A DNA stretch of 64,000 nt. It comes from an uncultured archaeon. Its GTDB lineage: Archaea; Micrarchaeota; Micrarchaeia; Anstonellales; Anstonellaceae. The position numbers and the translations under genes were made by a program. The notes under the pieces are model-generated. The model saw nothing but the letters and a program-made list of their open reading frames with translations. It was not told where the DNA came from and searched no databases. The stretch spans positions 25,067 to 89,066 of the forward strand of contig CABMCD010000027.1 of the NCBI GenBank assembly GCA_902384555.1, written 5' to 3'. Of the stretch, positions 5,603 through 42,460 are shown piece after piece (within the stretch, counting starts at the first letter, position 1; each line of letters begins with the position of its first letter).

Positions 5603-5620
5603 CACGAATATTTAAATAGG
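5603..5620 (+). promoter_or_regulatory. archaeal BRE/TATA-like element upstream of trpE
   Basis: cgaatatttaaatagg, an AT island in a GC-rich genome, ~45 nt upstream of the trpE ATG at 5663. Confidence 0.45.
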
Positions 5621-5662
5621 TCCGACGGGGAGTTGAATCATCCAAACATTAGGTGCATTACC

Positions 5663-7027: not shown

Positions 7028-7031
7028 GCCC

Positions 7032-7622: not shown

Positions 7623-7626
7623 GCGC

Positions 7627-8628: not shown

Positions 8629-8635
8629 GAAGGTT

Positions 8636-10612: not shown

Positions 10613-10621
10613 TTCGAGGCG

Positions 10622-11410: not shown

Positions 11411-11413
11411 AGG

Positions 11414-12244: not shown

Positions 12245-13272
12245 AGGAAATGACGCTCCGAGCGCAAAGCGGGACCACCCGCATACTACTGGATGCGAAG
12301 CTGGAGGACTTGTCCAAGCACGTGCCCCCCAAAACACAGGCCGTGATGGTGGTGGATGCCGAAGTGCTTAGGCTTCACGGCCCGCGCCTGCCCAAACTGC
12401 CAGTCATTTCCATCGAGGCCACGGAGGACAACAAGAGCCTCGACACCATCTGCAAAATCTACGAATTCTTCATGCAGCAGGAGCTGGACCGCACGGGATT
12501 TGTAATCGGCATTGGCGGCGGCATCGTGTGCGACATGGCCGGCTTCGCGGCTTCCACCTACATGCGCGGCGTGCCGTTTGCCTACGCGCCCACCACGCTT
12601 CTGGCGCAGGCCGATGCGTCACTGGGCGGCAAGACCGGCGTCAATTTGCAGGGCTACAAAAATCAGGTCGGGACATTCTGCCAGCCAAGCTTTGTGCTCA
12701 TGGACCTCTCCGTTCTCAAGACCCTGCCCGGGCCGCAAGTGCGGGACGGATTTGCGGAAATCATCAAGCACGCCGCCATTGCGGATGCGCAACTGTTCGA
12801 AATGCTGGAGAAGAACGCAAAAGATGCGCTTGTGCTGGATGAGAAGGCGCTGCGCGCCATTCTGCTCCGCTCGCTGGCCGTCAAGATTTCCGTTGTGGAA
12901 AAAGACGAGAAAGAGGCCGGCGTGCGCCGGCTGCTCAACTTCGGGCATACGCTGGGCCATGCGATTGAGAAAACGCAGCAAAAAAGCCATGGGCAGGCCG
13001 TGGCGATTGGGATGGTGCTGGCGGCCAAGATGTCGGTGGAAAGAAAGATGATGAAAGAAGGCGAGTGCAAACGGCTGATTTCGCTTTTGCGCGCGTATGG
13101 CCTTCCGACCGAATTGGATGGACGGCCGGATGCCCTGCTGCAAGCCGTAACGCACGACAAGAAAAGGGCGGGCGCAAGCCTCCATATGGTGCTGCTGGAA
13201 AAAATCGGGCAAGCTAAAGTGGTGGCAGTGCAAATGGACAAACTAGCGGGAGATTTGCATGATTTGCGTTAG
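12241..13272 (+). CDS. aroB: 3-dehydroquinate synthase
   Basis: [20 protein letters not shown]...[12 protein letters not shown], the DHQS metal/NAD-binding motifs. Confidence 0.85.
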
Positions 13273-15271
13273 CCTCATCGGCCCCACCGTGCGCGACTGT
13301 TTGGCCCAGCTGAAAGAAGTTTCGCTGGCCGAAATTCGGATGGATTTGATTTCGGATTTGGATGAGGGGGGCGTGAAGAAAATATTTTCAAGCCCGGTCA
13401 AATTGATTGCAACCTGCAGGCCGAAGGACAAGGAAAACAAGCAACAAAACGCCCGGCGCGAGCAACTGCTTCTTCTGGCCATTTCCGGCGGGGCGGCCTT
13501 TGTGGATATTGAGCTGGAGTCGCCGGCCGAAATGAGAAGACGAGTGGCGGAAGCGGCCAAAAAGGCCGGATGCAAGGTCATTGTTTCGCATCATGATTTC
13601 GAAAAAACCCCCATGCGGCAGGAGCTGGCCGGGATTAAGGCCCGCTGCCTTGAAGAGGGGGCCGATGTGGCGAAATTGGCCTGTATGGCCAGAAGCGAAG
13701 AGGACGTGCAGCGAATGCTGGATTTGTGCGACCCGCGCACCGTGGCGATTGCCATGGGTCCGATGGGAGTGGAAGCCCGGGCCAAAATTGTTTCATTGGG
13801 CAGCCCCTTCACCTTTGCCGCCTTTGATGAAAAGAGCGCGGCCGCGCCGGGGCAGGTGGGCAGAGAGAGGATGGAAAAAATGATGCAAGAGACCGGGAAG
13901 GCCGCGAGGGACGGGAAAACGACGGAGAACGGGGAGCACCCGGCTTCACGCACCCCCATTTTGCTGGCCGTCAGCGGCAATCCGGTGCATCACAGCCAAA
14001 GCCCGGCCCTGCACAATGCGGGTCTGGCCAGCTTGGGAATAGAAGGCGCCTACTTCCGCCTGCTGGGCGGCGATGCGGCCGAGGTGCTGCGCACCGCGCG
14101 GGCGATGGGCTTGCGCGGCCTGAGCGTGACCTCGCCCTTTAAGGAGGAGATGGCGCACTTGGTGCATGAATTGAACGGCGCGGCGCGTGAGCTGGGGGCA
14201 GCCAATACCGTGGTGCTGGAAAAAGGAAAGGCCGTTGGATACAATACGGATGGGTTGGGCGTGAGCGGCCCGCTGGCGGCGGCCGGCGTGTCCCTTTCGG
14301 GCGCACGGGCAGTGGTGGTGGGCTCGGGCGGGGCGGCCAAGGCGGCCGTGCTGGCCTTGCAGAAAGCGGGCGCGAGTGTGGTGATGGCCAACCGCACGGT
14401 TGCGAAGATAGAGGCATTTGCCAAGAAATTTGGATGTGAGACCTGCACGCTCGAGCCGGCCGAGCTGGGGCCGAAACTGGCGCAAGCGAGCATACTGGTG
14501 TCTTGCACCAGCACCCATGAGCGCTTCATCGAGCCCAGCCTGCTGCATTCGGAGTTGGCGGTGCTGGATGCGCATTACACCAAACCCACTGCACTGGTGG
14601 CCGATGCGAAGGCGGCCGGATGCAAAATCGTGTCAGCCCAAGACTGGCTGCTCTACCAGGGGCTGGAGGCCTTCCGGCTTTTCACCAAGAGAGAAGCCCC
14701 GGCCGAGGCCATGCGGCAAGGCGTGCTATCGGCCCAGCAGGCCGGACCCAAGCAGGCCAACAAGATTGCCCTTATCGGAATGATGGGCTGCGGCAAGAGC
14801 GCGGTCGGCAAGAGGCTGACCGACGGAGCCGGGCTGCGGCTGGTGGAAATGGATGCCGAGATTGAGAGAAAGGCCGGCAGGCGCGTGGCTGAAATATTTG
14901 AAAAAGAGGGAGAAGCGAAATTCAGGCAAATGGAATCCGCCCTGCTAAGCGAGCTGGCGGGGCGCAAAGACAAGTTCGTGGTGTCCTGCGGGGGCGGCGT
15001 GGTGCTCGACGAGCGCAATGTCGAGCTGTTGCAGACGCATTTCTACACCGTGTGGCTCTGGGCGGACGAGGAGGACATTTTGGCCCGCGTGGGCTCGAAA
15101 ACCAGCCGGCCCCTGCTCAACCGGCCCGACAAGCGCGAGGCCGTGCGCCGCCTGCTGGAGGAGCGCAAGGTGCGCTATGCGTCAGCCTGTGATTTGGCCA
15201 TCAGCACCCAAAACCGGACGCCCAAGAAAATCGCCGAGATGATTGCTCATGAAATTGGTCTTGCCAACTGA
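13259..15271 (+). CDS. aroDEK: trifunctional 3-dehydroquinate dehydratase (type I) / shikimate dehydrogenase / shikimate kinase
   Basis: N-terminal type I DHQase (SHHDF, Lys in KLA). Middle AroE (AVSGNPVHHSQSPALHN, GSGGAAKAA). C-terminal bacterial P-loop AroK (IGMMGCGKSAVGKRL). Confidence 0.85.
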   Translation: MICVSLIGPTVRDCLAQLKEVSLAEIRMDLISDLDEGGVKKIFSSPVKLIATCRPKDKENKQQNARREQLLLLAISGGAAFVDIELESPAEMRRRVAEAAKKAGCKVIVSHHDFEKTPMRQELAGIKARCLEEGADVAKLACMARSEEDVQRMLDLCDPRTVAIAMGPMGVEARAKIVSLGSPFTFAAFDEKSAAAPGQVGRERMEKMMQETGKAARDGKTTENGEHPASRTPILLAVSGNPVHHSQSPALHNAGLASLGIEGAYFRLLGGDAAEVLRTARAMGLRGLSVTSPFKEEMAHLVHELNGAARELGAANTVVLEKGKAVGYNTDGLGVSGPLAAAGVSLSGARAVVVGSGGAAKAAVLALQKAGASVVMANRTVAKIEAFAKKFGCETCTLEPAELGPKLAQASILVSCTSTHERFIEPSLLHSELAVLDAHYTKPTALVADAKAAGCKIVSAQDWLLYQGLEAFRLFTKREAPAEAMRQGVLSAQQAGPKQANKIALIGMMGCGKSAVGKRLTDGAGLRLVEMDAEIERKAGRRVAEIFEKEGEAKFRQMESALLSELAGRKDKFVVSCGGGVVLDERNVELLQTHFYTVWLWADEEDILARVGSKTSRPLLNRPDKREAVRRLLEERKVRYASACDLAISTQNRTPKKIAEMIAHEIGLAN

Positions 15272-16499
15272 AATAGACGGCCAAGTGCCGGCCCCCCCGT
15301 CCAAAAGCCAGATGCAGCGCGCGGTGGCCATCGGCAGCCTAAGCGAGGCGCCCCTCACCATCACCAATCCCGATTTCAGCGACGACTCGCAGTCGGCCAT
15401 GAGCGTGGTGGAAGGGCTGGGAGCCAAAGTCGAGCGCCAATTTGGCGGGCCGGAAGCAAACGTCAGGATTACCCCCGGTGCGGGCCTGGCGCAGCACACC
15501 CTCAACTGCGGCCAGTCGGGCCTGTGCATGCGCCTGTTTCCCTCCATTGCGGCCCTGCAGGACAAGCCCTTTACATTTACGGCAACCGGCGGGCTGAACA
15601 CCCGCCCAGTGGGCATGCTCTCCGACGCGCTCAGCCAGCTGGGAGCCGAGAGCCACTGCAAAAATGGACTTCCGCCCCTGAGCGTGCAGGGCCCGCTGCG
15701 CGGCGGGAATGCGGTGATGGATGCCTCGGTCTCGTCCCAGCCCCTGAGCGGGCTGCTGCTGGCACTGCCGAAAGCGCAGGCCGATTCGCATGTGGAGGCG
15801 CGGGGCCTGGAGAGCAAGCCCTATGTGCGCATGACCATGCAGCTGGCCGCCAAATTCGGAGTGGAAATCGGGCATTCGGAGAATTTGGATGCGTTCGACA
15901 TTCCGGCCCGGCAGCAGTACCGGGGCGGAAGCTATGAGGTGGAGGGCGACTGGTCGGGCGCCTCGTTCCTGCTGGTGGCCGGAGCGGTCGCGGGCCGGAT
16001 GGCGGTGGAGGGGCTGGATGCCGATTCGCTGCAGGCCGACCGGGCCATTCTCGATGCGCTGCGCCTTGCGGGCGCAAACGTGAAGGATGGCCCGAATTCG
16101 ACCCGAGTGGAGCGTGGCGAGCTCCAGGCGTTTGAATTCGACCTCACCCAATGCCCGGACTTGGCGCCCCCGCTGGTGGTGCTGGCCGCCTACTGTCCGG
16201 GCACCAGCATTTTGCGCGGCACCCGCCGCCTGCGCTTCAAGGAGAGCGACCGGGCGGCCGTGCTCAAGGAGGAGTTCGCCCATTTGGGCGTGCGGGTGGA
16301 GACGGAGGAGAATGAGATGAGAATATTCGGAGGCGCGGTGCGCGGCGGAGAGGTGGATTCCAACGGGGACCACCGCATCGCCATGAGCGCGGCCGTGGCC
16401 GCGCTGGGCTCGCAGGAGGGCGTGAGGATAAAGAACGCGGCCTGCGTCTCGAAATCATTCCCGTCATTTTTCGAGCGTTTGGAGGAAGCGAGGGCGTGA
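15243..16499 (+). CDS. aroA: 3-phosphoshikimate 1-carboxyvinyltransferase (EPSP synthase)
   Basis: PPSKSQMQRA...LGAKV motifs and full-length EPSPS. Confidence 0.9.
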   Translation: MLMKLVLPTEIDGQVPAPPSKSQMQRAVAIGSLSEAPLTITNPDFSDDSQSAMSVVEGLGAKVERQFGGPEANVRITPGAGLAQHTLNCGQSGLCMRLFPSIAALQDKPFTFTATGGLNTRPVGMLSDALSQLGAESHCKNGLPPLSVQGPLRGGNAVMDASVSSQPLSGLLLALPKAQADSHVEARGLESKPYVRMTMQLAAKFGVEIGHSENLDAFDIPARQQYRGGSYEVEGDWSGASFLLVAGAVAGRMAVEGLDADSLQADRAILDALRLAGANVKDGPNSTRVERGELQAFEFDLTQCPDLAPPLVVLAAYCPGTSILRGTRRLRFKESDRAAVLKEEFAHLGVRVETEENEMRIFGGAVRGGEVDSNGDHRIAMSAAVAALGSQEGVRIKNAACVSKSFPSFFERLEEARA

Positions 16500-16535
16500 A
16501 GGAAGAAGCCGGCGCAGGCCGGCGAACGGGAGGTT

Positions 16536-17588
16536 ATGGGCATGAACACGTTTGGAAGTTTGTTCCGCGTATCGGTTTTCGGCGAATCCCACGGCCCGGC
16601 AGTGGGCGTGCTGCTGGACGGCGTGCCGGCGGGCGTGAGCTTGAGCGAGGCGGACTTTTCCGCTGATATCGGGCGGCGCAGGCCCGGGGCGAGGGGCACC
16701 ACACCGCGCGTGGAGGCGGACGAGCCCGAGCTGATGAGCGGCGTGTTTAATGGCAAGACCACCGGCGCGCCCCTGCTGATTATGTTCCACAACGGCAACG
16801 TGGACTCCAAGCCTTACGAGAAATTGAAAAACACGCCCCGGCCCGGACATGCGGACCTGACAGCCAGCCAGAAATTCGGCGGGTTCAATGATTACCGCGG
16901 AAGCGGGCATTTTTCCGGCCGGCTGACGCTGTGCCTGGTGGCGGCCGGCGTGGTGGCCAAGAAAATGATGGCTGGAGCGGGGGCGGAAGAGGCCGGACGG
17001 CGCGGGGCCGGAGCCGGAGAGGGCATCCGGATTGAGGCCCGCCTCGTTTCGGCCGGCGGCTCGGCCGACGTCCAGTCTGCGGTCGAATCCGCCATGAAAG
17101 ACGGCGACTCGGTAGGGGGCGTGGTGGAATGCAAAGTGTCCGGCCTGCCAACCGGGCTGGGCGAGCCCTTCTTTGACTCGGCCGAGTCGCTCATCAGCCA
17201 CATCGCGTTCGCCATTCCGGCCGTGAAAGGGGTGGAATTCGGCACGGGGTTCGCGGCCGCAAAAATGAAGGGAAGCGAAATGAACGACAGCCTCGCGGAT
17301 GCCTCGGGCCGCACGCGCACCAATAATTCGGGCGGCATCAACGGCGGCATCACCAACGGAAACGAGCTGGTGGTGCGCATCGCCGTCAAGCCCACCTCCA
17401 GCATTGCCCGGGAGCAGGAGCTGCTGGACGTCAAGAGCGGCGAGAAAAAGAAGGCCAGTATAGCGGGCCGGCATGACGCCTGCATCGCCTTGCGCGTGCC
17501 GGTGGTGCTGGAGGCGGCCGTGGCGATTGCGCTGGCCGACCTGATGGCGCGCGAGCAGAAAGTGAAGCGCGTGCAGGCCCGGGCGTGA
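16536..17588 (+). CDS. aroC: chorismate synthase
   Basis: FGESHGPAVG...RPGHAD...GRHDACIALRVPVVLEAA, the conserved chorismate synthase signatures. Confidence 0.9.
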   Translation: MGMNTFGSLFRVSVFGESHGPAVGVLLDGVPAGVSLSEADFSADIGRRRPGARGTTPRVEADEPELMSGVFNGKTTGAPLLIMFHNGNVDSKPYEKLKNTPRPGHADLTASQKFGGFNDYRGSGHFSGRLTLCLVAAGVVAKKMMAGAGAEEAGRRGAGAGEGIRIEARLVSAGGSADVQSAVESAMKDGDSVGGVVECKVSGLPTGLGEPFFDSAESLISHIAFAIPAVKGVEFGTGFAAAKMKGSEMNDSLADASGRTRTNNSGGINGGITNGNELVVRIAVKPTSSIAREQELLDVKSGEKKKASIAGRHDACIALRVPVVLEAAVAIALADLMAREQKVKRVQARA

Positions 17589-31700: not shown

Positions 31701-33142
31701 TCAAGGCGCCCGCGACTGGGGCGGAAGGGGAAGTTGGCGGCGGGACGGAAGGGACGGGCGGACCGACGAATGGGATCGGGCCGAAGGCCGCGGGTGGGAC
31801 GGAAGAAGCAGGCACCGGACAACAGACGAGCATTGATGCCGGATACTGGAGGAACGGCCAGCCGCGGATGAACATCGGCGGGCAGGACGGGATTCCGGAC
31901 GGGCAATATGTTCTCTTTGAAAACAAGAGGGGAAAGGGAAAGCGATGGGTACTGGCCAACGAAGACGGCAAAACGGAGGAGCTGCAAGACCCCAAAATTG
32001 GCCAGAAGCTGGACCAGTTGTGGAAAAAGAACAAGCCGGCGCCGGAAACGGAAACAAACGCGACAAAAAGGACCATGGCGGATGACATCTTCTCCGCCCA
32101 AGTGGGGCCGGCTGAAATCGAATTCGCGGGCAAGATAAAGAGCCTGTATGAGAAAGCACTTAACACCAAGACAGATGTGGAACTGCAAGGAATTCTGACA
32201 GAAATGGAAACGCTCGTCTCGTCCGAGCCGCTGACGCCAAGCAGGATGAAAGCGGCGGCAGAGGCGCTCGGCATTGATGCGGGCCGGATGAACGCTCTGG
32301 AGCAGAACTTGGAGGTGCTTTGGCCCATCTGCGACCGCTTCTCGGACGCCATGATGGCGGGCCAGGCCGAAATGGGCGGAAGCGGGACGACCTGCATCTA
32401 CTTGGGCCGGGACGGTTGGGCCATGATGTTTGCCCATGCGCTCAAGACCGGCAACGCGGACGGAAGCATCCGCTCGCTGGTGTTCACGCGCGACATGATG
32501 GAAGTAGGCGAGGGAGAAAGCCATGCCGGGCCTTCCGGTGCGCCGGCCCCGTTCAGCATACAATACCGGACACTGCGCCGCGGGGCTTTCAACTCGAATC
32601 CGGTCGGACAGGCAGATTATGCCCTGAAAACCTCTGAGTTCATGGACAAGTATACGGCTTGGTTCGGCAAACAGTGTGAAAACGAGGGATTCCGCAATGA
32701 AGTCGTGAAGGTGTATGATTACATCAAGGCGAACGGGTCAGTGAAGACCGATGCGCAGGGGCGCATCGTCCCGCAGAACTTTTTGGTCGCCGACATCGGG
32801 TTCATTTCGTTCCCCCCGTTCATCAAGAGCGTCATTGAGTACGGGGCCGTGCATGTGGACGGCCTTCCGGCCGGACAGGTGAAGGGAGGCGTGATGTATT
32901 ACCAGACGGCGGCCGGATTCGAATATCTGCCCAATGTCCGCAAAGCCGACGGCTCGGACGGCTCCGGCTTGGCGAGCGTGAGTAAGGTTGAAAAGAAGAG
33001 GCTGGAACCAGTCAACTTCAGCGAACCGGTGTCCCAAGTGGACGCCCAAGGAAACGCGGTGCTGGACATCGGCCCCCGGCGCGCATCCGATGCGCTGTTC
33101 TTTTATTTGATGATGGGCAAAACCATGCAGGATGCGAAGTGA
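25706..33142 (+). CDS. giant multidomain protein (2478 aa) with predicted TM hairpin, internal repeats, caspase-like His/Cys dyad, coiled coil and GHKL/histidine-kinase-type ATPase domain
   Basis: Uninterrupted 7.4-kb ORF with complex composition. HATPase_c boxes around aa 1885-1985: N-box AVGNLCSNAERYG, G1 VMDDGPGF, G2 QVGLSTVKL. HG...SC dyad at aa 1482 and 1524. Two hydrophobic helices around aa 656-730. Confidence 0.8.
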   Translation: MFVLQMGALKPDASNQPASGGADALFSSSSFAQMLKAALYNMDMIGGGQVRLTPLLPTFGAQEQQEALQKVLDGMGRNDVAVEVRDQGLYLRKLPPKQNEDVVLTHVQPGTTFPFRFPPVDPGMRVEDVLDAVLTQQLGPRMAAMDPAQAEDLKQIYGTLAERYRDDPTHEHRVDVTMGEDGKWKAAEVQAVPVPMGAKEAMEQFRAKPGVESALDAIRAVKTEMDGKKTTGAGQKKYDSSLRQQYLLPILSALTPQERTELVQKIGTDPRFEREEKDYLRQQLAKTSSYVQGKPALLKLGAGLKGLDLPELQERMKRTVDIYLSSPGSNLGTAAAQTFNKLFADALGKCTSVEQYRQVVQYGFSLVSGTYLQKITYDKGEKKGQLVIDIEQMAKQGMGGPNMQGAVRSEQMLAFLTGKYNEMKDELESEARFSYARAMNISSYRLTYQNGKPVLEPNPDIPAGPLSPYAPANLAKNMPKDPAARENYLQTKINEMQALESRSRLQRVMGYEQPLTVTEGGGTRHVPGYMDLVNDPHFLADGGLRMNWNGDARKRADVGFFLLNSAFAAEQTADSYAAAPGSERGVARLRQIAKAYQQLEKDFKAGKLDIVDALDGARDLQKQFDATMQKLPQDLFVAGGHATLFGMEVDSEFFRWTVANKAAIGTVVFTGMSLIPGGQIGSAIGFTYMAANDIYEGIRSGNAEQIIMGSAMLLPFAGTAMMARAGRLAEVGEAAGALRWTRAGTAASRTGEVVLYAGMGKGAWEIYKGINEGYFSYSSDIGSIGSLVLPVGIMHTAKALKTKTVSGKAEVKGETAKVPAEVKEEPGTKTQMPAPNEVETKTASLETGKTGTAVAGLDVDAAKRPLSQLGANKTTDAAANKGAEETTALPTEVEARQWEVFREFCIKAAEDYAQYEREHPDVNETDPLNNTPASVLSKNYDQLVELAKTNELAAMKLQWLTKYSPDFFQSADGGRVRQLVLAGQDNPLLMEVARDLAWRRPQLLDPASLAVVLNESGQATARIMQGGGKFDYPLALHIFSVNPALLAEEAPMQALLKWAHNSRDPAAFRLIDRLVNDPGLPQARESLYKAFDAMTFHELDVRNPAAQKFEGTENLLRRFDRWRDDLGTQPRPVLTAEEQAQWNAVELLLSDVGKFEATYTDPASPLADPINRLPPELFSKNYVRLLELCKESEYGPQILSILIRRTPEIFDDPGHRRMRQLLGAAEDSPRLWDAVAELAGERPDLFNDQSIGQLFSNYPADQAPMWLVSKLAKSQPWLMGGERAMDALLRFNAFDEAGLVLRTLNNSHATNAFCLAAWQELPFLQSLTFRDVHSMFEPLKNYEPFPGNKYPYQEVPELLRSMQSLEARSPGAVADLYNGFGIRRFDRYSAEEMAQQHDNQQYAQQSGQAPQTDKPVLLWITAVNDHNGVFATHSGKIQNLKNDFNVIYVEAGNKLELASRFGRTLRAYNPDNQPVTVAVNMHGSGFSGELGSGRHGDLNTGDVILNRNYDPYLPAGSAVLWISCKLGQEGGLAHKFMQKYDKYFVTGFDGSTGFDNINYMGKSKGYFEFDITPNRSDVRVISSEPPTPEVKTGKAAATGNAYEPAAQITPEQTNPVAAEKTAAGVAAEGEAPKLSEKQMEEQAILHDAKNAVVACDTPTKALQMYLDAFAESPERTALEGNLSALEADISIINQGFDKLSNLSDPAYRAKLEKQKADISGQLGEIGPDYREEAQKKLDQINRDLADLDDPDYRERLTADLRVRSRQVEAKMKEVNLEVDRLMNANSLSEADAADIGMFNNGLRNNGADLHGALGELRALDETGVHQPEVGEYNIVAAVRNYFKSASKSGSKFGANVSVLEVGPDGTRREAGDHFTALYDPTLLRRAVGNLCSNAERYGNSKAWMEVEITPTEVRIRVMDDGPGFRPQDVGRAFDFKSGIENYGNKKSSQVGLSTVKLDVEKMGGTVAITDGPQLGGGPTTVEIRLPRGKGVEGETGAEIKAPATGAEGEVGGGTEGTGGPTNGIGPKAAGGTEEAGTGQQTSIDAGYWRNGQPRMNIGGQDGIPDGQYVLFENKRGKGKRWVLANEDGKTEELQDPKIGQKLDQLWKKNKPAPETETNATKRTMADDIFSAQVGPAEIEFAGKIKSLYEKALNTKTDVELQGILTEMETLVSSEPLTPSRMKAAAEALGIDAGRMNALEQNLEVLWPICDRFSDAMMAGQAEMGGSGTTCIYLGRDGWAMMFAHALKTGNADGSIRSLVFTRDMMEVGEGESHAGPSGAPAPFSIQYRTLRRGAFNSNPVGQADYALKTSEFMDKYTAWFGKQCENEGFRNEVVKVYDYIKANGSVKTDAQGRIVPQNFLVADIGFISFPPFIKSVIEYGAVHVDGLPAGQVKGGVMYYQTAAGFEYLPNVRKADGSDGSGLASVSKVEKKRLEPVNFSEPVSQVDAQGNAVLDIGPRRASDALFFYLMMGKTMQDAK

Positions 33143-34545: not shown

Positions 34546-34802
34546 CTCTGACGAAGCGATTGAAGGCCCAGACGGGACCACCTCCCAGATTCGTTTGGAG
34601 GAGCCGGCGGCGGTCAGGTCGGTGATGGCGCGGGTGCAGTCGATTTTGCGCATATCAGGAATTCGAATTTCAAGTTAATAAGAGCGGCTTTAAGCCGGAA
34701 CATATTCATTTCATCCGCCCCCTCTCATATCGACGTGAATTGGCCGGCGGTTCCGGCGGCTTTTTTATTCTCCGGTTTCCTCAAGCGCATGCGTTGATTG
34801 TT

Positions 34803-35780
34803 ATGGCGGATTCTCCCATCTATGACGTGCTCGTGATTGGCGCCGGCTGCGGCGGCTGCTCGGCGGCCATGTACGCGGCGCGCTTTGGAATGAAGGTGCT
34901 GATGCTCGGCGAGCTGCCGGGCGGCACCATCACCCAGACGCACGTGGTGGAAAACTACCCCGGATTCGAGACCATCACCGGCCTTGAATTGGGCGAGCGG
35001 CTGCTCAAGCACGCGCAGGCCTATGGCGCGGAACTGAAGATGGAGAAGGCGCTCAAGGTGGAGAAAAAAGCGGACGGAACGTTCGCCACGACTACCGATG
35101 CCGAGGCCACCTACCTCTCGCGCACCCTCATCGCCGCCACCGGAGCGGAGTGGAAGAAGCTGGGCGCGCCGGGCGAAAAAGAGTACGCCAACAAGGGCGT
35201 GCACTACTGCGCGCTCTGCGACGGCTCGTTCTACAAGGGCAAAACGATTGCCGTGGTGGGCTCGGGCGATTCGGCCGCGAAAGAGTCGCAGCTGCTGGCC
35301 GAATACGGCGCGCATGTCTATGTCTTTGTGCGCGGCCATGAGCTGCACGGCGAGCCCATCAACAACAAGCGCGTGGCCGCCAACCCCAAAATCACCGTCT
35401 TTACGGACGTGCAAATCCGGGAGATTGCCGGCCAGCCGAAAGGCAAGATGACGCACCTGAAACTGACCAAGCCCTGCGCGCCGATGGTGAAGCAGGCGGA
35501 CGGCTCGCTCAAGCCGGGCCAGCCGACCGATTCCTTCCCGGCCGACGCGCTCTTCGTGCTCATCGGCCACTCGCCGCTCTCCATCCTGCTCAAAGAAATG
35601 GGCGTCGAGCTCAACGCGCGGGCGGAAGTGAAGGTGGACCGGCTGATGCGCACCAACATCGAAGGAGTGTATGCGGCCGGCGACGTGAACGATTCGGAGT
35701 TCAAGCAGGCGATTGTGAGCGCATCGGACGGCGTGGTGGCCGCCTACTCGGCGCATCAGCTGCTGGAAAAAAAGAAATAA
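34803..35780 (+). CDS. trxB: thioredoxin-disulfide reductase
   Basis: VIGAGCGGCSAA FAD motif, CALCDG redox-active disulfide and GSGDSA NADPH motif. Start at MADSPIYDV. Confidence 0.85.
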   Translation: MADSPIYDVLVIGAGCGGCSAAMYAARFGMKVLMLGELPGGTITQTHVVENYPGFETITGLELGERLLKHAQAYGAELKMEKALKVEKKADGTFATTTDAEATYLSRTLIAATGAEWKKLGAPGEKEYANKGVHYCALCDGSFYKGKTIAVVGSGDSAAKESQLLAEYGAHVYVFVRGHELHGEPINNKRVAANPKITVFTDVQIREIAGQPKGKMTHLKLTKPCAPMVKQADGSLKPGQPTDSFPADALFVLIGHSPLSILLKEMGVELNARAEVKVDRLMRTNIEGVYAAGDVNDSEFKQAIVSASDGVVAAYSAHQLLEKKK

Positions 35781-35814
35781 TACGCTTTTAAGTTTCCGCC
35801 CGCCTGCACGGGCC

Positions 35815-36504
35815 ATGCGCGCGCAAACCTCGGCCGAATGGGCCTTCATTCTGGGCGTGGTGCTCACGGCCGCCCTGCTGGTGCTGGCCACCTCCAGCCT
35901 GCTGCCCGCCGGCGTGGGCGGGCGGGTTCAGGTTCAGGACTCGGTTGCGTATTGGGGCTCGCAGGCGCGGCCGCTGGAAGTGGCCGGCTGGCAGATGGAG
36001 GCCACCGGAGCCAACCTCACCGGCGCCAACCTTACCCTGGTGTTCGCCAATGCCGGCACCGAACAGGTGCGCATCCGCAAAATCATGCTCGCGCCCGGCT
36101 CGTTCACCCAAGTCTACAACGCCTCCGGCACAAGCCTGGGAACGGCCGACGCGCTGGACATCCTGCTGCTGCCCTCCGACCGGCTGACGCTGGTGCTGAG
36201 GCAGCAAGCCGGGGCCGCAGGCGCCTACGCCGTCCCGCCGCTCTACACCCTCAACCTCACCATCACCTATGACGGGACGTTCCCCTCCATGGTGGAGAGC
36301 GGGCGCGTGCCGCTGGCGGGCGAGGCCAAGGTCATCGACCAGGCCGAGGGCATCCCCTGCCGCACCAACGGCGACTGCGCGTCCGGCTACTGCCACGACA
36401 CGGGAGGTGGCAAGATTTGCGTGGAATGTATCGCCAACGGCCAGTGCTCGTGCCCGCCCCCCAAGAACGCGACCTGCGTCAGTTACGCCTGCCAGTGCAC
36501 TTAG
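35815..36504 (+). CDS. pilin-like surface protein with class III (archaeal prepilin-type) signal peptide and Cys-rich C-terminus
   Basis: MRA|QTSAEWAFILGVVL with Gln+1 and Glu+5 then a hydrophobic helix. NLTGANLT, NAS and NLT sequons. C-terminal CRTNGDCASGYC...CVECIANGQCSC knot-like block. Confidence 0.6.
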   Translation: MRAQTSAEWAFILGVVLTAALLVLATSSLLPAGVGGRVQVQDSVAYWGSQARPLEVAGWQMEATGANLTGANLTLVFANAGTEQVRIRKIMLAPGSFTQVYNASGTSLGTADALDILLLPSDRLTLVLRQQAGAAGAYAVPPLYTLNLTITYDGTFPSMVESGRVPLAGEAKVIDQAEGIPCRTNGDCASGYCHDTGGGKICVECIANGQCSCPPPKNATCVSYACQCT

Positions 36505-36636
36505 GCGGGGCCAAGAAGCGCCGCTTTGGCGGACAAAAGCGGCCGCGTTGCGGGGCTTGAGGGCCCGAATTTATTCTTTTTTGCGACGGAGGGCCGAGGG
36601 CAGGCTTTTAATCCCTTTTGGCGAGTAGGTGGCCGT

Positions 36637-39600
36637 ATGGGAGAAGAAGAGAGAAGGGGCGTGAGCAGCGCCGAATTCCTGGCCCTGGCGGCCATCCTTT
36701 TCGTGGCGGCGCTGGTGCTGTCCCAGCTGCTCGGCATCCTGCCGCTGCAGGGCGTCCTGTTCTCGCAGTCCAGAACCTATTGGAACGCGCAGGCCTATCC
36801 GCTCAAAATCACCGACTGGGCGCTCTTGGTGGCCAACGGGACGGGCGGAGACGGCATCTACCGCACCGAAGCCAATCTCTCCATGGTGCTGCTCAACCCC
36901 ACCACCAGTCCGCTCACCATGCAGGCCATCAGCATCGGGCCGGGCAATTTCAGCCAAGTATATGATTTGGACACCCACCAATGGCTGGGGCCGGCGAACC
37001 AGCTCAACATCCGCATCGAGCCGGGGCAGAAGAAGGGGCTCATCGTCCAGCACTGGCGGCTCGGCCCGCCATCCAGCGCGCCGCTGGCCGAGCGCTTCGA
37101 GGCGGACCAGGAATACCAGTTTGACGTGCAGTTCACCTATGCCGGGCGGCTCGAATCCGATTCCGCGCAGACGGCCGCCGGACAGGGCGGCATCCTTACC
37201 CTGCAGCACGGCAGCCTGCCGCTGGTGGGCCAGACGCGCTATGCCGGCATCCCCAGCGGCGTGTGTCCGAGCGGCACGAGCTATTGCGCGGACGGGAGCT
37301 GCTGCGGGGCCGGACAGTGCTGCGGCGGGACGTGCAAGCTGCCCTCCCAATACACCTGCGACGCCTCGTGCACCTGCTGCCCCCTGAGCCAGACGCCGTG
37401 CAACGGCGTGTGCTGCCCCTCCAGCCAGATTTGCGTGAACGGCGCCTGTCAGGCCCCGAACTGCACGTCTCCCTCGTTTGCCTGCGGCCGCTTCTGCTGC
37501 CCCGACAACTACTATTGCGCCAATGACAGCACGACCGATTACGGACAGGCCTGCGTGCGGATATGCAAGAGCCCCACCAACGGCACGTGCGGGCAGTGGT
37601 GCTGCCCCGACGACCAGACCTGCAACTTCGCAGGCGCCCCCTCCATCGACACCGCCTGCGCGCCCACCTGCGCCCCGCAGGTGCAAACCAGCTGCCTGGG
37701 CCCCAACTGGACGGCGAACTGCTGCGAGAACGTCAGCAGCGTCGTCTGCGCCAACGCGTCGGGCACCTGCTGCGACCTCAACGTGGGCATGGCCTGCAAT
37801 TTCCTCAACTCCAGCGGCAACTTCACCGCCTGCTGCAACAAGACCAACCAGCAGTGCACCACCGGCGGCTGCTGCTCCAATCCGGGCGGGGCCTGCACCA
37901 CCAACGCGGACTGCTGCGACGGCTGGGGCTGCAGCAACGGCGTGTGTTCCAGCTGTCCCGCCGGCTGGAGCGCCTGCTGCGCCCAGCCCACGCTGCTGTG
38001 CAACTTCAACCTCTCCAACCCCGACCCGATTTCCTCGCGCAACTGGAACCCGGGGCTCTATCAGGACTGCTGCCAGCACAACCTCGACAATAACGGCAAC
38101 TACATCAACGAGAGCTGCCAGGGCAACTGGTTCGACGGCACCCGCTTCTGGTACGGCTGCCCCCCGGACAACATGCTGACCTCCACCTGCCTCAACGACA
38201 CGGCTTGTGCAAGGGGACCCTACTGGTACAACTACACCAATTACTCCACCGACGGCGTGATATACCGCCCGTGGCCGGCCGGATGCCCCTCCTTGAGCAG
38301 CGGCGGCTACCCCAACAACAGCGGCTGCTGCATCAACAACACCTGGGACTACTGCAACCCGGCAGAGGGCGTGTACTGCTGCCCCGGAACCTACTGCGGC
38401 CCGGACAACAAGTGCACCTATCCCTTCACCTGCCCCTCCAACACCGTCTACATCGACAACGGAGACCATGTGGACAACTACTGGGACTGCTGCCCCAGCG
38501 GCAACGTGAGCTGGCAGAACGCCACCACGGCCGTGTGCTGCCCCAACCCCAGCCTCATGAAAAGTTTCTACGACCCCAACACCGGAGCGCTCTACAGCCG
38601 CTGCTGCAACTCGGCCAACGACACGCTGTGCGGCGCGAATGGCGTGTGCTGCCCCGCCGGCCTGTGCGACGAGGTGAGCGGAACCTGCTGCGGGACCGGC
38701 ATGACGGTGTGCCAGACCGGCTACAATGCCAACATCTGCTGCAACAGCACCACCAGCAACTGCGTGCCCAACAACGGCCCGCGCAGCTATGGCGCGTATT
38801 CCGCCTGCTGCCCCAAGGGCGCGAACGGCAACCAGACCACCTGCGCCAACGGGGCCTGCTGCGACACCACCACCAGCGGCATGGTGTGCACCGGCGACGG
38901 CTGCTGCAACACCACCAGCGGCTCGGGCTATGAGATTTGCAGCGACCAGAACGACACCTGCTGCGGCCCCAGTCCGACCCGCGAGTGCAAGAACGAGCTC
39001 AGCTATACGGGAGGCTACCCGGTGGCGCTGATGGGCAGCGTCTGCTGCGCGGGCGACCAGGTGGCCTGCCAGAAGCAGTGCTGCTCCTCGGAATCCAACT
39101 GCATCCCCGCCAAGTGCCCGAGCATCAACGAGTCGGGCAGCCTCGTCATGCTGGACTGCAGCCCCAAGTGCTGCGAGAACTACAAGGGCACCCCGCCCAA
39201 TCCGCAGCTGTGCGGCAACACCACCTGCTGCTATGGCGCCAGCAGCTGCCTGCAGCCCTCCGACGGCAGCAGCCCGCGCTGCTGCCCCTCGCCCGATTTC
39301 GGCTCCACCCCCGTGCTGTGCGGCGGCACGGGTGAATGCTGCGACGTGGCGGGAGGCTCGGTGTGCTTCGGCACGGTGTGCTGCCCCCCGCCCAACAACA
39401 CGGCCTATTGCGCCGGCAACAACCAGTGCTGCAACCAGAGCTGCTCGCAGCCCGGCAACGTGTGCTGCTCGGGCGGCGGCGGGCCGACGCCGGACTCCTT
39501 GGGCAACTACCACTGCTGCCCGGCGCCCAACAACACCGCCTATTGTCTGGGCAACGGCATGTGCTGCAACGAGAGCTGCAAGGCGGGCGACCTGTGCTGC

Positions 39601-40872
39601 ACCTCGCCCACCAAAGAGTCGGCGCAGGGCCCGCTGGGCGACTACCGCTGCTGCCCCGACGGCAAGACCGAGATTTGCACCGGCGACAACACCTGCTGCG
39701 ACCACTGCACGGCCGGCACCGACGGCAAGACCTACTGCTGCCCGGCGCCCAACAACAAGATATACTGCGCGGGGGCCAATGGGCAGGGAGCCTGCTGCGC
39801 CAGCCCCACTTGCACCCCCGGAACGGACGGCTATAACTACTGCTGCGCGGCGCCCAACAACGTGAGCTACTGCCCCGGCAGCCCGCAATGCTGCTCCCAG
39901 AACTGCATCGACGGGCACTGCTGCCAGGACACCCCGCCGGACGCGGACCCGAACGGCAACATGTACAGCGTCGTCTTCTGCGCGGGCGACAACCAGTGCT
40001 GCGGGCACACCTGCTCGTCCGGGCACTGCTGCCCGTTCGATACGCATGGAAACCTGCAGGACTATGTGAACGGCCAGTGCTGCCCAACGGACCAGAAATA
40101 CTATGACTCGAGCGCCGGAAAATACCTGTGCTGCAGCGGGTCACTGTGCAACGGAGAGTGCTGTCAGGCGAGCGGGAAGGTTTGCACGACATATACAGGT
40201 TTGGACGGTAATCCGCACAGCACCTGTTGCCCGCCCGGCCAAGTGGCGGATGCCAGCGGCGTGTGCTGCGACTCTAAAGACCGAGTGGACATTGGCGGCG
40301 TCCTGACCTGCTGCCCGGCCGCCCAGCAATGCCCGGCCGGTGCTCCGACACAGTGCTGTCCGAGCGGACAGAGTTGTGCAACGTATTCGGATTCGTTTGG
40401 AAACCCACAGACTAAATGCTGTCCCGTCGGCCAGCAGGCCTTGGAGGGAAGCGGCCAATGCTGCGACCCGGCCAGCATCCAAACCGTCAACGGCAACCAG
40501 ATTTGCTGCGACGGCTCCGGCCTCAGCGCCTGCATGGTGAACAATGTCGAGGGCACCCCCAATCCCTTCTGCTGCCCGCTGGATGGAAATGGCCAGTGCA
40601 TCATGTCGGTTTGCGGCGGAGCCTGCTGCGACGAGTCCATCGACCCCATAACCAAGGCGCCGCGCAACGTCTGCCACCGGGAACTGACCCCGCCGCAATG
40701 CCTGCCGGGCCTGACATATGACCCCGGACACACCTGCCCCACCCCGCCCAACCCGCCGGGGTCGGTATATTGCGGCAGCGGCGGCATGACCGGAAGCACC
40801 GGATACTGCTGCCCGCCCGGAACCAACTGCTCAGACCCGAATCTGGACCTGAAGAGCTGTATAGTCCAGTAG
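36637..40872 (+). CDS. giant cysteine-rich (about 16% Cys) pilin-like surface glycoprotein, paralog of the upstream gene in its N-terminal domain
   Basis: Start at MGEEERRG|VSSAEFLALAAILF (class III signal-like). The N-terminal ~230 aa aligns with the upstream gene (YWxxQAxPL, IxPGxFxQVY). The following ~1200 aa is dominated by CC dipeptides and repeated CCPxPNNTxYCxGN modules. Confidence 0.75.
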   Translation: MGEEERRGVSSAEFLALAAILFVAALVLSQLLGILPLQGVLFSQSRTYWNAQAYPLKITDWALLVANGTGGDGIYRTEANLSMVLLNPTTSPLTMQAISIGPGNFSQVYDLDTHQWLGPANQLNIRIEPGQKKGLIVQHWRLGPPSSAPLAERFEADQEYQFDVQFTYAGRLESDSAQTAAGQGGILTLQHGSLPLVGQTRYAGIPSGVCPSGTSYCADGSCCGAGQCCGGTCKLPSQYTCDASCTCCPLSQTPCNGVCCPSSQICVNGACQAPNCTSPSFACGRFCCPDNYYCANDSTTDYGQACVRICKSPTNGTCGQWCCPDDQTCNFAGAPSIDTACAPTCAPQVQTSCLGPNWTANCCENVSSVVCANASGTCCDLNVGMACNFLNSSGNFTACCNKTNQQCTTGGCCSNPGGACTTNADCCDGWGCSNGVCSSCPAGWSACCAQPTLLCNFNLSNPDPISSRNWNPGLYQDCCQHNLDNNGNYINESCQGNWFDGTRFWYGCPPDNMLTSTCLNDTACARGPYWYNYTNYSTDGVIYRPWPAGCPSLSSGGYPNNSGCCINNTWDYCNPAEGVYCCPGTYCGPDNKCTYPFTCPSNTVYIDNGDHVDNYWDCCPSGNVSWQNATTAVCCPNPSLMKSFYDPNTGALYSRCCNSANDTLCGANGVCCPAGLCDEVSGTCCGTGMTVCQTGYNANICCNSTTSNCVPNNGPRSYGAYSACCPKGANGNQTTCANGACCDTTTSGMVCTGDGCCNTTSGSGYEICSDQNDTCCGPSPTRECKNELSYTGGYPVALMGSVCCAGDQVACQKQCCSSESNCIPAKCPSINESGSLVMLDCSPKCCENYKGTPPNPQLCGNTTCCYGASSCLQPSDGSSPRCCPSPDFGSTPVLCGGTGECCDVAGGSVCFGTVCCPPPNNTAYCAGNNQCCNQSCSQPGNVCCSGGGGPTPDSLGNYHCCPAPNNTAYCLGNGMCCNESCKAGDLCCTSPTKESAQGPLGDYRCCPDGKTEICTGDNTCCDHCTAGTDGKTYCCPAPNNKIYCAGANGQGACCASPTCTPGTDGYNYCCAAPNNVSYCPGSPQCCSQNCIDGHCCQDTPPDADPNGNMYSVVFCAGDNQCCGHTCSSGHCCPFDTHGNLQDYVNGQCCPTDQKYYDSSAGKYLCCSGSLCNGECCQASGKVCTTYTGLDGNPHSTCCPPGQVADASGVCCDSKDRVDIGGVLTCCPAAQQCPAGAPTQCCPSGQSCATYSDSFGNPQTKCCPVGQQALEGSGQCCDPASIQTVNGNQICCDGSGLSACMVNNVEGTPNPFCCPLDGNGQCIMSVCGGACCDESIDPITKAPRNVCHRELTPPQCLPGLTYDPGHTCPTPPNPPGSVYCGSGGMTGSTGYCCPPGTNCSDPNLDLKSCIVQ
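39360..39910 (+). repeat. tandem coding repeat modules (CCPxPNN[TKV]xYCxGxxxCCxxxC) within the Cys-rich gene
   Basis: At least four copies visible at about 39375, 39511, 39733 and 39838. The tgctgc hexamer is highly recurrent. Confidence 0.6.
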
Positions 40873-40969
40873 AGGCGTTGGAAGCGGGGCCTTTTTATAT
40901 GAAAATTTGAGCAATTTTTCCTAGGCGCGAGGGGTAAAGCTTATATAGTTTGCCGGGGCCTATAAAAAC

Positions 40970-42460
40970 ATGAAATCCCCTATTCCGACCACCAAAAACA
41001 ACGTTGTGCGTGAAGCCGGCCTCAAGGTCGGCGAACTTGGAAAAGACGTCTTGAATTTCGCCACGGCGAATCCGGGCAAGACGGCGGCAGGCGTGGCCTT
41101 TGTGGCCAAGCTCCTGACGCCGGACGTGGCTTCGGCGCAGGACCCCTCGATTGTCAACATCACCCGCGTGGATGGCGCCATCAACAAGGTCATTCCCTTT
41201 GAGGGCGGCACTTACAATATTGTCGGCACGTCCAGCACCGTCACCAAGACCATGTCGCTGGACTCGGTTTACCTGTGCCAGACGGTGGATTTGAATTCCT
41301 CGTCTTCCTTCAAGTTCTTCGGGAACTTGGAAGTGAAGGTGGCCGGCTACGACAACGGCGTGCTGACGCTCAAGCCCGTCAAATCCGCCTATGGAACCAT
41401 CCAAATCCAGAACGGCGACAAGCACGGCGAGTGGACGTTTGAGGTGGCGGAGCAGTCGGCTTCGGTCCTCAAGCTGCGCGCGGTTGCGACCAACCAGACC
41501 GTGAAGCAGGGCGACACCCTGCGCGGCCCGGCGGGCAGCATTGACCTGACCAACGTGCCGTCCCCGGCCTATACGCAGGCGATTATCCGCTCCATCTCGA
41601 ACACGACCATTCCGACTGACCAGGGAGACGTGACGATTGCGAACGGCTTCAAGATTCAGATTGTCCGCGACAGTTTGGCGAAGAACCCGGTGAAGAATGA
41701 CTTCTATGTTTTGAATGGGTCTGGAACCACTGTTATCGGCGAGTTTGTAGTGGACCCCGGCACCAAGAAGGGCTACTACAAGGACACCACGGGCACGACG
41801 GAGTTCAAGAAAAACAGTACTCCGGCAGTCAGTATTAGCGCAACCAATGCCATTAATGCGGCTGGAAAGAGTGCGGATAGTAAACCTATTGTTCAACACT
41901 CGATAAAATTCGATAACACCAGTTCAGACCGCTTGATGTTTGCTATCCAAAATGGCGAGATAGTTAGCCAAACATTCGATTTGGTTCACTCGACAATCAA
42001 GGGTACTACCGTGATTGACTCCCTTATGCAGTCCGGCCTGCTCTCCTACCTCGACCCCGTCTCCAACTTCAAGGACACCGTCGTCACGGGCCAGAACGGC
42101 AAGCTGGAAGTCGTCATCGCCTACAACGGCAACGACCCGCGCAACAACGTCCAGCTCGTGCTGGGCAAGCCGGACTCCAGCGTCACGGACGTGCGGGAGG
42201 GCCCGGCGGGCGCCATCCACGCCGACATCCGCGTCTACCCCAACCCGATTGCGGACCGCGTGATGAACGTCGAGCTGCCTCAGGCCGTTGAGAAGGACCG
42301 CAAGTTCTACATCTACACCCAGCTCGGCCAGCAGGTGGGCGAATTCACCATCCCGGCGGGCGAGCAGGTCGGCCATGTCTTCCTCAAGGACCTGTCCACG
42401 GGCACCTACTTCGTGACCGACGGCAAGCGCGGCCTGCCGATTGTGGTGTTCGACAACTGA
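40970..42460 (+). CDS. secreted/surface protein with N-terminal anchor helix and T9SS-like (Por_Secre_tail-type) C-terminal beta-sandwich domain
   Basis: C-terminal RVYPNPIADRVMNV...FYIYTQLGQQV...GTYFV...KRGLPIVVFDN matches the Bacteroidota C-terminal sorting-domain pattern. Many NxS/T sequons and an N-terminal hydrophobic helix. Confidence 0.6.
   Translation: MKSPIPTTKNNVVREAGLKVGELGKDVLNFATANPGKTAAGVAFVAKLLTPDVASAQDPSIVNITRVDGAINKVIPFEGGTYNIVGTSSTVTKTMSLDSVYLCQTVDLNSSSSFKFFGNLEVKVAGYDNGVLTLKPVKSAYGTIQIQNGDKHGEWTFEVAEQSASVLKLRAVATNQTVKQGDTLRGPAGSIDLTNVPSPAYTQAIIRSISNTTIPTDQGDVTIANGFKIQIVRDSLAKNPVKNDFYVLNGSGTTVIGEFVVDPGTKKGYYKDTTGTTEFKKNSTPAVSISATNAINAAGKSADSKPIVQHSIKFDNTSSDRLMFAIQNGEIVSQTFDLVHSTIKGTTVIDSLMQSGLLSYLDPVSNFKDTVVTGQNGKLEVVIAYNGNDPRNNVQLVLGKPDSSVTDVREGPAGAIHADIRVYPNPIADRVMNVELPQAVEKDRKFYIYTQLGQQVGEFTIPAGEQVGHVFLKDLSTGTYFVTDGKRGLPIVVFDN

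Follow-up and report, generated by a model that had tools for sequence, protein, structure and literature searches.

A candidate modular surface protein with a type IV pilin-like N-terminal module and a cysteine-rich payload in Micrarchaeota

Introduction

Two adjacent genes of a tiny, uncultured archaeon of the symbiotic type (Micrarchaeota; Anstonellaceae) encode related proteins in which a pilin-type N-terminus appears to be joined to cysteine-rich sequence. They lie in a 64,000-nt stretch of DNA with 62% GC (assembly GCA_902384555.1, contig CABMCD010000027.1, positions 25,067-89,066, forward strand), which is referred to here as the window and from whose first nucleotide its coordinates are counted. 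On balance, we lean towards interpreting the product of the second open reading frame (ORF2) as a modular class III-signal (type IV pilin-like) surface protein bearing a disulfide-laddered, glycosylated stalk or adhesin, with the product of the first (ORF1) as its small paralogue. Related loci are denoted below by L numbers and homologous proteins by P numbers.

No published description or annotation of the pilin-like N-terminal domain (N-domain) was found in the literature or in family databases. The same holds for the 1200-aa payload of Cys-Cys (CC) repeats with 16% cysteine, for which the searches returned no family, structure, annotation or mention in the literature. The Micrarchaeota-centred N-domain family, and its pairing with a Por_Secre_tail-like protein, have not been described before. 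The novelty lies in the combination and in the module, as CC-repeat extracellular proteins and pilin-fused adhesins are already known. A first-pass annotation of this DNA, made by a model from the sequence alone, had proposed a surface protein of an undescribed type; this stands for the module, which has neither annotation nor paper, but not for the two kinds of protein that it brings together. The 'cysteine-rich repeats' of a 2026 preprint (10.64898/2026.06.07.730663) are of another type and not relevant here.

Two tandem paralogues in genuine reading frames

The first-pass annotation had placed tandem paralogous proteins in 35815-40872, and both reading frames are indeed found there on the + strand (Table 1). 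ORF1 aligns with the N-terminal 262 aa of ORF2 at 26% identity (BLASTP, E 4e-19), and by this comparison the two are paralogues over an N-terminal domain of approximately 200 aa. The length first given for the second protein, about 1412 aa, was close: the long frame is confirmed, but it encodes exactly 1411 aa. A TTG codon at 36526 would lengthen it only by a non-conserved extension. An NCBI entry identical to the 1411-aa protein, from a 100,976-bp contig, is named 'Uncharacterised protein [uncultured archaeon]'.

The possibility that the cysteine-rich frame is a frameshift artefact, raised in the same annotation, was checked and ruled out. GC content at the three codon positions of ORF2 is 0.50/0.59/0.88, with a third position like that of the genuine genes of the window, and ORF2 aligns along its entire length with four full-length homologues of 1263-1392 aa. 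The frame is regarded as genuine because of these two findings.

The ATG of ORF2 is preceded by a Shine-Dalgarno-like motif, GGTGG, and by a TATA-like box, TTTTAAT. Comparable A/T-rich boxes are located some 25-30 nt before the ATGs of ORF1 (CTTTTAAG) and of the gene downstream of ORF2 (TTATATA); the stretches that carry the three boxes are 35780-35815, 36600-36637 and 40872-40970. T-runs are present after ORF1 and after ORF2. As each gene has a TATA-like box of its own, and T-runs stand behind the first two, the arrangement, as read from the sequence alone, suggests separate short-leader transcripts for ORF1, ORF2 and the downstream gene, as opposed to one operon.

The N-terminal module

ORF1 begins with MRA|QTSAEW, a 3-aa leader (MRA) with predicted cleavage at A3|Q4; residues 4-28 form a hydrophobic helix, and a predicted beta-sandwich domain occupies residues 38-175 approximately. 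ORF2 begins with MGEEERRG|VSSAEF, in which the leader comprises residues 1-8, cleavage is predicted at G8|V9 and E13 occupies position +5. Its hydrophobic helix extends to about residue 33 (residues 11-31 in the AlphaFold2 (AF2) model), and the predicted beta-sandwich domain behind it contains the family-invariant residues S45, Y48 and W49, a P-like position 55, and N80. The class III signal-like N-termini with Glu at +5 thus read as the first-pass annotation had described them, and the motifs that it reported as shared (YW..QA.PL, NL[ST] and PG.F.QVY) are present in both proteins. Among the ORFs of the window, ORF1 and ORF2 alone carry the class III motif. For the N-domain, structure prediction gives a helix and a beta-sandwich, and archaeal pilins are matched only weakly.

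Word-index homology searches proved insensitive, with ORF1 retrieving only itself and an N-domain profile two proteins, so that an exhaustive HMMER search was required. It covered 1.84 billion representative proteins with a profile built from ORF1, ORF2 (residues 1-1150) and four homologues. At the threshold of E <= 1e-3 there were 302 matches (approximately 300 protein clusters), 51 of them at E <= 1e-10. The majority have 150-200 aa and cover only profile positions 3-180 or thereabouts.

N-terminal statistics were taken from an alignment of 117 short family members. Position -1 is G or A and position +5 is E in all 117, position +1 is Q in 115, and position -2 is K or R in 92. The median leader is 7 aa long, and the 17 residues from +6 to +22 are 90% hydrophobic. 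The family N-terminus therefore conforms to the strict class III signal [KR]-[GA]|Q-x-x-x-E plus hydrophobic helix, and 78 of the 117 members match the Pfam Class III signal peptide model PF04021 at E <= 0.01. Behind the helix stands a signature of invariant or near-invariant S, Y-W, P and N residues, S-x-x-Y-W ... P ... N-L-[ST], which belongs to no curated family in Pfam or NCBIfam. In another Micrarchaeota genome (L012), four small Class_IIIsignal genes that belong to the family are arrayed in tandem. These lines of evidence are each weak alone, and because they converge we consider the module very probably archaeal type IV pilin-like, as far as can be read from sequence.

Beside the array in L012 lies a stretch of 4.4 kb without a called gene (5104-9547). 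It contains a 253-aa ORF (7340-8101) that, by the look of its sequence alone, encodes a LAGLIDADG-type homing endonuclease, and it may be an intron-bearing rRNA gene.

The cysteine-rich payload

All 194 cysteines of ORF2 are confined to residues 210-1408. They make up 16.1% of the C-terminal 1206 aa, which agrees with the approximately 16% first reported, but only 13.7% of the whole protein. The dozens of CC dipeptides noted at first sight are a non-random and conserved feature: 59 pairs are present, compared with 31.0 ± 4.6 in shuffled sequences (n = 1000, maximum 46), a 1.9-fold enrichment. CxC occurs once against 31.1 expected, CxxC twice and CCC not at all. The number of cysteines is even, allowing about 97 potential disulfides in 1200 residues, and the region is composed of degenerate CC-x(4-9)-C-x(4-9)-CC units. 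The cysteines are also those positions that are retained between homologues. Among the five sequences compared, 112 of the 194 cysteines (58%) are invariant, in contrast to 29 of the 1012 other residues (3%), and in pairwise comparisons 65-74% of cysteines are conserved against 11-18% identity at other positions, the figures for cysteine being inflated because alignments of such sequences anchor on cysteines. A disulfide scaffold is the reading that we draw from these properties together, since CC is enriched, CxC is depleted, the cysteine count is even and the cysteines are invariant.

The many N-x-S/T sequons that had been remarked upon are likewise in excess, with 34 in ORF2 against 16.5 ± 3.5 expected; none of 2000 shuffles reached 34. 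ORF1 has five where 1.1 are expected. Because sequons are enriched twofold in ORF2, an extracellular and glycosylated location is suggested, and the payload is probably an extracellular disulfide-bonded glycoprotein. The premise of the first-pass annotation that adjacent cysteines cannot form a disulfide with each other is not strictly true, as cyclo-cystine loops at di-cysteine motifs have been discussed for galaxin (PMC2726143).

Several segments can be distinguished within the region (Table 1). The most conserved core is common even to the homologue P0005 from a distant genome of 41% GC, and the pattern CA[NT][LA][TSD]GTCC was picked as the most conserved one for a genome scan. The aromatic and Asn-rich insertion that follows is lacking in all four aligned homologues (alignment columns 640-760 approximately), and might be a loop particular to the lineage that binds glycans or a ligand. 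Further along, the degenerate tandem repeats are present in five or six diverged copies; at the DNA level a repeat family (D2) has 66-nt units at 39379, 39514, 39646 and 39841 that are 62-82% identical. The segment behind these resembles the di-cysteine pattern of galaxin.

ORF2 and four sub-segments of it matched no Pfam family even at E <= 10, NCBIfam returned nothing for ORF2, and a profile search of PDB sequences with the cysteine-rich part gave zero matches. Profile positions from about 700 to 1048 also draw, at E 1e-11 to 1e-19, CC-repeat proteins from elsewhere (P0035, P0046), one of a nematode and one of metagenomic origin whose signal peptide is of bacterial type. P0046 scores below threshold against Galaxin_repeat (18.7 versus 28 bits). 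Rather than homology, we see in this likeness across kingdoms a convergence on a design of di-cysteine repeats.

As first described, the short protein ends in a cysteine knot, which resembles hEGF and Nodulin_late only faintly (Pfam, E 0.07-0.19). Orthologues of ORF1 are found in L001, where the protein has 172 aa and is without the knot, and in L008.

Homologues, divergence and the conserved partner gene

The N-domain is joined to a variety of C-terminal regions, and the architecture of the family is modular. In ORF2, residues 1-205 precede the 1200-aa cysteine-rich region, and other cysteine-rich repeat giants with the same N-domain are P0009, 11, 13, 14, 15, 21, 25, 27 and 36. The carriers of relatives bear six or more CARDB domains in P0029 (Pfam 9e-52), CARDB also in P0032-34, Ig/BNR-like repeats in P0116 and Gly-rich regions in P0026. 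Where a source is named, members are annotated without exception as 'hypothetical protein' and come from Candidatus Micrarchaeota, Micrarchaeia or Anstonellaceae, save for one metagenome-assembled genome (MAG) labelled Marsarchaeota.

Two observations concern this label. The genome of L001 (GCA_023488825.1) is entered at NCBI as 'Candidatus Marsarchaeota', and in a comparison with the window it reaches about 90% identity in the aCPSF1 and proteasome genes, where the MAGs labelled Micrarchaeota (L005, L007, L008) reach 85-89%. At least one of these taxon labels is likely wrong. A paper on Tardisphaera, which reports a single pilus-like appendage, was reached through the Marsarchaeota label and was not relied on, the other named homologues being from Micrarchaeota, Micrarchaeia or Anstonellaceae.

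Identity to close relatives falls steeply along the locus, from 88-91% for aCPSF1, 85-91% for the proteasome subunit and 69-77% for the thioredoxin-reductase-like protein to about 50% for ORF1 and 30-43% for ORF2. Divergence as fast as that of ORF2 is, in sequence comparisons, typical of exposed proteins.

A gene with a Por_Secre_tail-like end stands directly behind the giant gene in the window and in L001, L002, L003, L004 and L010 (Table 1). The partner proteins of these relatives have 500-670 aa, and have in common a C-terminal tail of approximately 90 aa and little else. L004 and L010 belong to distant genomes (41% GC) with other flanks, comprising ribosomal proteins and RtcB; in L004 the giant gene and its Por_Secre_tail-like companion are accompanied by two further small pilin-like genes downstream. 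Because the pairing is kept in distant genomes with otherwise different flanks, gene order indicates that it is likely functional. Por_Secre_tail is a sorting-like domain of type A of the type IX secretion system, and no such system is known in Archaea.

Comparison with known systems

Archaeal type IV pilins of the PF04021 kind, such as those of the Methanococcus Epd type, resemble ORF1 and 115 of the 117 short family members in having Q at +1. They are also alike in the basic leader, G or A at -1, the hydrophobic helix, the build of helix plus beta-sandwich predicted here and the occurrence of small members in tandem. Epd-type pilins with Q at +1 are cleaved by EppA (PMC4858521, and general knowledge). 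ORF1 and ORF2 differ from such pilins in falling under the Pfam cut-off, in the V at +1 of ORF2, in the distance of their genes from pilus machinery and in the uncurated signature behind the helix.

Bacterial modular type IV pilins, including PilB (vWA) and PilC (lectin) of Streptococcus sanguinis, and CofB, provide a parallel for one carrier with varied payloads, a position at the tip and a part in adhesion being expected (PMC8179133). In contrast to these, ORF2 is archaeal, has a different pilin fold class and a repeat stalk without a recognisable domain, and is known here from its sequence alone; its payload of approximately 1200 aa exceeds the 860-aa extreme case in the same source (PMC8179133).

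Within archaea, disulfide-stabilised components of type IV pili and large minor pilins or adhesins with class III signals have been noted (PMC4858521; bioRxiv 10.64898/2026.04.22.720090). The large class III 'adhesin or minor pilin' proteins in archaeal type IV pilus loci (Makarova, Koonin and Albers 2016) are the same in concept as ORF2, being large and having several conserved cysteines, which are expected to form stabilising disulfides (PMC4858521). They are located inside the type IV pilus loci of Thermoproteales and Euryarchaeota, however, and are not described as CC-repeat proteins with 16% cysteine, whereas the ORF2 family is Micrarchaeota-centred and lies outside such loci.

Galaxin of the coral skeletal matrix (PF24748) shares with ORF2 a cysteine content of 12-13%, an acidic net charge and an extracellular glycoprotein nature, the last being predicted for ORF2 (PMC2726143). 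Both have tandem repeats with regularly spaced CC, in which little is conserved besides the CC arrangement (PMC2726143), as in residues 1131-1330 of ORF2 (CC-x12-20-CC). ORF2 differs in being mostly CC-C-CC with extra single cysteines, in its archaeal source and in the fusion of its repeats to a pilin module. It does not match the Pfam model PF24748, the likeness in pattern is limited to residues 1131-1330, and the resemblance of the two sequences is probably convergent.

A further comparison is with granulin/epithelin (PF00396). The CC pairs of granulin are 5-8 residues apart and form a disulfide ladder that joins stacked beta-hairpins. ORF2 is similar in the spacing of its CC pairs and in a recurrent H/Y-CCP motif, but it has no defined 12-cysteine module, and its cysteine spacings do not form the granulin arrangement C-x5-6-C-x5-CC-x8-CC-x6-CC-x5-CC-x4-C-x5-6-C. 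The comparison with granulin-like CC-rich families that the first-pass annotation had suggested gave no match to Granulin or Galaxin_repeat at E <= 10.

Proposed function and alternative explanations

The short basic leader, G or A at -1, Glu at +5, hydrophobic helix of approximately 22 residues and beta-sandwich of approximately 165 aa would together amount to the build of an archaeal type IV pilin. Cleavage behind A3 of ORF1 and G8 of ORF2 may be carried out by a prepilin peptidase whose gene lies in another part of the genome, upon which the helix would either remain in the membrane or become packed in the core of a filament like a type IV pilus. As the pilin module of ORF2 bears an extracellular payload of 1200 aa, a filament could fit it only at the tip or at the cell surface. 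In the degenerate CC...C...CC units, the conserved cysteines may form a disulfide ladder between neighbouring short beta-hairpins. The resulting stalk would be stiff and resistant to proteases, acid and heat, with N-glycans on its surface, and the hypervariable loops between the fixed cysteines would provide the binding surface, with which the protein would act as an adhesin or as a stalk that recognises a host cell or a substrate. ORF2 would probably act together with ORF1 and the downstream Por_Secre_tail-like protein. What is known of the lineage is compatible with pili: the Micrarchaeota genome Mia14 encodes two type IV pilus systems and one FlaK-like peptidase, with key components common to many Micrarchaeota (PMC5498576), and Micrarchaeota cells bear thin pilus-like filaments (PMC11329633). 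Modular pilins occupy the tips of pili and serve in adhesion (PMC8179133). That ORF2 acts as an adhesin or in host recognition at a pilus tip, and not as part of the envelope, is put forward only tentatively, as we are almost evenly divided over it.

A number of findings weigh against this interpretation. No gene for a pilus ATPase, platform protein or prepilin peptidase, which the first-pass annotation had proposed to look for, was found in the window or within ±10 kb of the five related loci scanned (L001, L002, L003, L004, L010). Tested against the class III signal model, which so many family members match, ORF1 remains under the gathering cut-off of PF04021 (13.5 versus 23.7 bits, E 0.074) and ORF2 has no match to it in the Pfam scan; at +1, where the family has a near-invariant Q, V is found in ORF2 and in the homologues nearest to it. 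Class III signals are also found on non-pilus surface proteins such as the sugar-binding proteins of Sulfolobus (PMC4858521). The excess of sequons is not family-wide, since P0005 has three and P0013 six. An AF2 model of a cysteine-rich segment (residues 860-1150, from a 5-sequence alignment) did yield short beta-hairpins, but at low confidence (pLDDT 51), and its best Foldseek neighbours in the PDB are furin-like/EGF cysteine-rich rods at a non-significant E >= 0.7. The hairpin-ladder picture has the cysteine pattern as its sole basis, and the cysteine conservation behind it is inflated as noted above.

The absence of pilus machinery from these loci is among the points that would favour a different explanation, in which ORF2 belongs to the envelope or to a sheath and is anchored in the membrane. 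Its class III signal would then serve only for delivery and anchoring, like that of the Sulfolobus bindosome proteins, and the cysteine-rich stalk would span or build the envelope, perhaps with the Por_Secre_tail-like protein, as an S-layer-like element or a spacer. Consistent with such a role are the secreted neighbour with a beta-sandwich tail, with which the giant is paired even across distant genomes, and the single giant copy per locus in many genomes. Archaea offer precedents both for non-pilin surface proteins that use class III signals and for large, cysteine-bearing, S-layer-like proteins encoded in type IV pilus loci (PMC4858521). What makes us regard this explanation as rather unlikely is that the N-domain, past the signal, is common to hundreds of pilin-sized proteins of approximately 175 aa that occur in tandem arrays like pilin sets, and that rapid divergence and swappable payloads (CARDB, Ig) suit an adhesin better than the former of a lattice.

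ORF2 might instead be released, as a matrix, biofilm or antimicrobial protein analogous to CC-repeat proteins of the galaxin or granulin type. Its pattern is like that of di-cysteine repeat proteins, and the nematode and metagenomic matches of the profile, one with a sub-threshold match to Galaxin_repeat, point the same way; these cross-kingdom matches span the repeat pattern only, however, and may be compositional. ORF2 itself matches neither the Galaxin_repeat nor the Granulin model, and the hydrophobic N-terminus of class III proteins is kept after cleavage and anchors them in the membrane or filament (general knowledge; PMC8179133), so that we consider release improbable. Even less credible is an extracellular metal-binding or metal-sequestering domain, either metallothionein-like or with metal-sulfur clusters, as raised by the first-pass annotation. 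The cysteine content of the region (16%) and the metal-rich, acidic settings of some relatives (PMC5498576) would fit such a domain, but groundwater Micrarchaeota also carry family members. The usual chelating spacings are nearly missing (CxC 1 against 31 expected, CxxC 2), and on these motif counts the metallothionein-like and metal-cluster readings were rejected. Histidine makes up only 1%, the number of cysteines is even, their distances of 4-9 residues are those usual in disulfide-rich modules, and the many sequons indicate an exposed glycoprotein.

If ORF2 is a pilin-like adhesin, its family might form a host-recognition 'antenna' of DPANN archaea (Micrarchaeota) at the pilus tip or surface, in which a fixed disulfide scaffold displays hypervariable loops whose rapid diversification (30-43% identity, beside approximately 90% in the housekeeping neighbours) sets which host can be attached, together with a Por_Secre_tail-like partner in a lineage without a type IX secretion system. 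We regard this extended proposal as speculative and more apt to be wrong than right by some distance. Were it true, the antenna would be an archaeal counterpart of variant surface proteins built on cysteine scaffolds. In the recognition and attachment of hosts by DPANN archaea, cryo-tomography reveals filaments and contact structures (PMC11329633, PMC5498576). For the proteins behind these, the family offers a concrete and testable candidate, with a pilin-type carrier in approximately 300 protein clusters and giant, fast-evolving payloads in many Micrarchaeota. It would also extend to archaea the idea of the modular pilin, so far documented for bacteria. The cysteine-rich payload is an unusual protein material, and may deserve attention where the stability of proteins under heat or acid is concerned.

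Features of the locus and other genes of the window

The coordinates of the features are collected in Table 1. Gene order in the window is thioredoxin-reductase-like gene, ORF1, ORF2, Por_Secre_tail-like secreted protein, a 458-aa protein, proteasome beta subunit, aCPSF1 and methionyl-tRNA synthetase (MetRS), and it is mostly kept in the close relatives L001, L002, L003/L005, L007 and L008.

Table 1. Positions of ORF1, ORF2, their segments and the adjacent genes
Feature	Position	Strand	Description and basis
ORF1, small pilin-like paralogue	35815..36504	+	229 aa; ORF list; E 4e-19 to ORF2 N-terminus
ORF1, C-terminal Cys knot	36355..36501	+	Residues 181-229; 10 Cys at 182-228
ORF2, modular pilin-like protein (candidate)	36637..40872	+	1411 aa; ATG at 36637, stop at 40872
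ORF2, class III-type signal (predicted)	36637..36735	+	Sequence reading, family statistics, AF2 helix residues 11-31
ORF2, pilin-like beta-sandwich domain (predicted)	36754..37251	+	Residues about 40-205
ORF2, Cys-rich region	37264..40860	+	Residues 210-1408; 194 Cys, 59 CC, 31 sequons
ORF2, most conserved Cys-rich core	37699..38076	+	Residues 355-480; CAN[LA][ST]GTCCD ... CCDG; alignment of homologues
ORF2, aromatic/Asn-rich insertion	38077..38325	+	Residues 481-563; 14 W/Y/F, 5 Cys, several sequons
ORF2, degenerate tandem repeats of 32-45 aa	39280..40026	+	Residues 882-1130; CCP-x-PNN-x-x-YC-x5-CC-x3-C-x6-CC; protein pattern
ORF2, CC-x(12-20)-CC repeats	40027..40626	+	Residues 1131-1330; galaxin-type di-cysteine resemblance in pattern
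Thioredoxin-reductase-like flavoprotein	34740..35780	+	34 nt upstream of ORF1; Pfam Pyr_redox_2 1.4e-43
Downstream partner, secreted protein	40970..42460	+	496 aa; Por_Secre_tail-like (PF18962) beta-sandwich end; Pfam E 1.4e-6
Partner genes in relatives	L001 8108-9821; L002 14361-17798; L003 14235-15995; L004 10148-11842; L010 13697-15718		

The thioredoxin-reductase-like gene is adjacent to the pair in L001, L003/L005, L007 and L008 as well, and the adjacency is lost in L004 and L010. A functional link to it was rejected as unproven, since the adjacency is found only among relatives with housekeeping genes of approximately 90% identity. A tRNA-Leu(CAA) called by ARAGORN at 35476-35552 (+) lies wholly inside this reading frame and is probably a false positive.

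Upstream, a 2478-aa ORF (25706-33142, +) has as its sole Pfam match one HATPase_c domain at residues 1879-1987. In L003 and L005 a stretch of 361 aa that is 48% identical to it precedes the giant gene, and L003 has a 1192-aa HATPase_c protein there.

The remainder of the window comprises genes of tryptophan and shikimate biosynthesis, tRNA synthetases and transporters. The aromatic genes form a co-directional run (5588-17588, +) of anthranilate synthase, TrpD, a fused IGPS-TrpB, TrpA, DAHP synthase and DHQ synthase, followed by a fused DHQase-shikimate dehydrogenase-shikimate kinase, EPSP synthase and chorismate synthase. This set of genes for aromatic amino acids is unexpectedly complete for a lineage labelled DPANN/Micrarchaeota.

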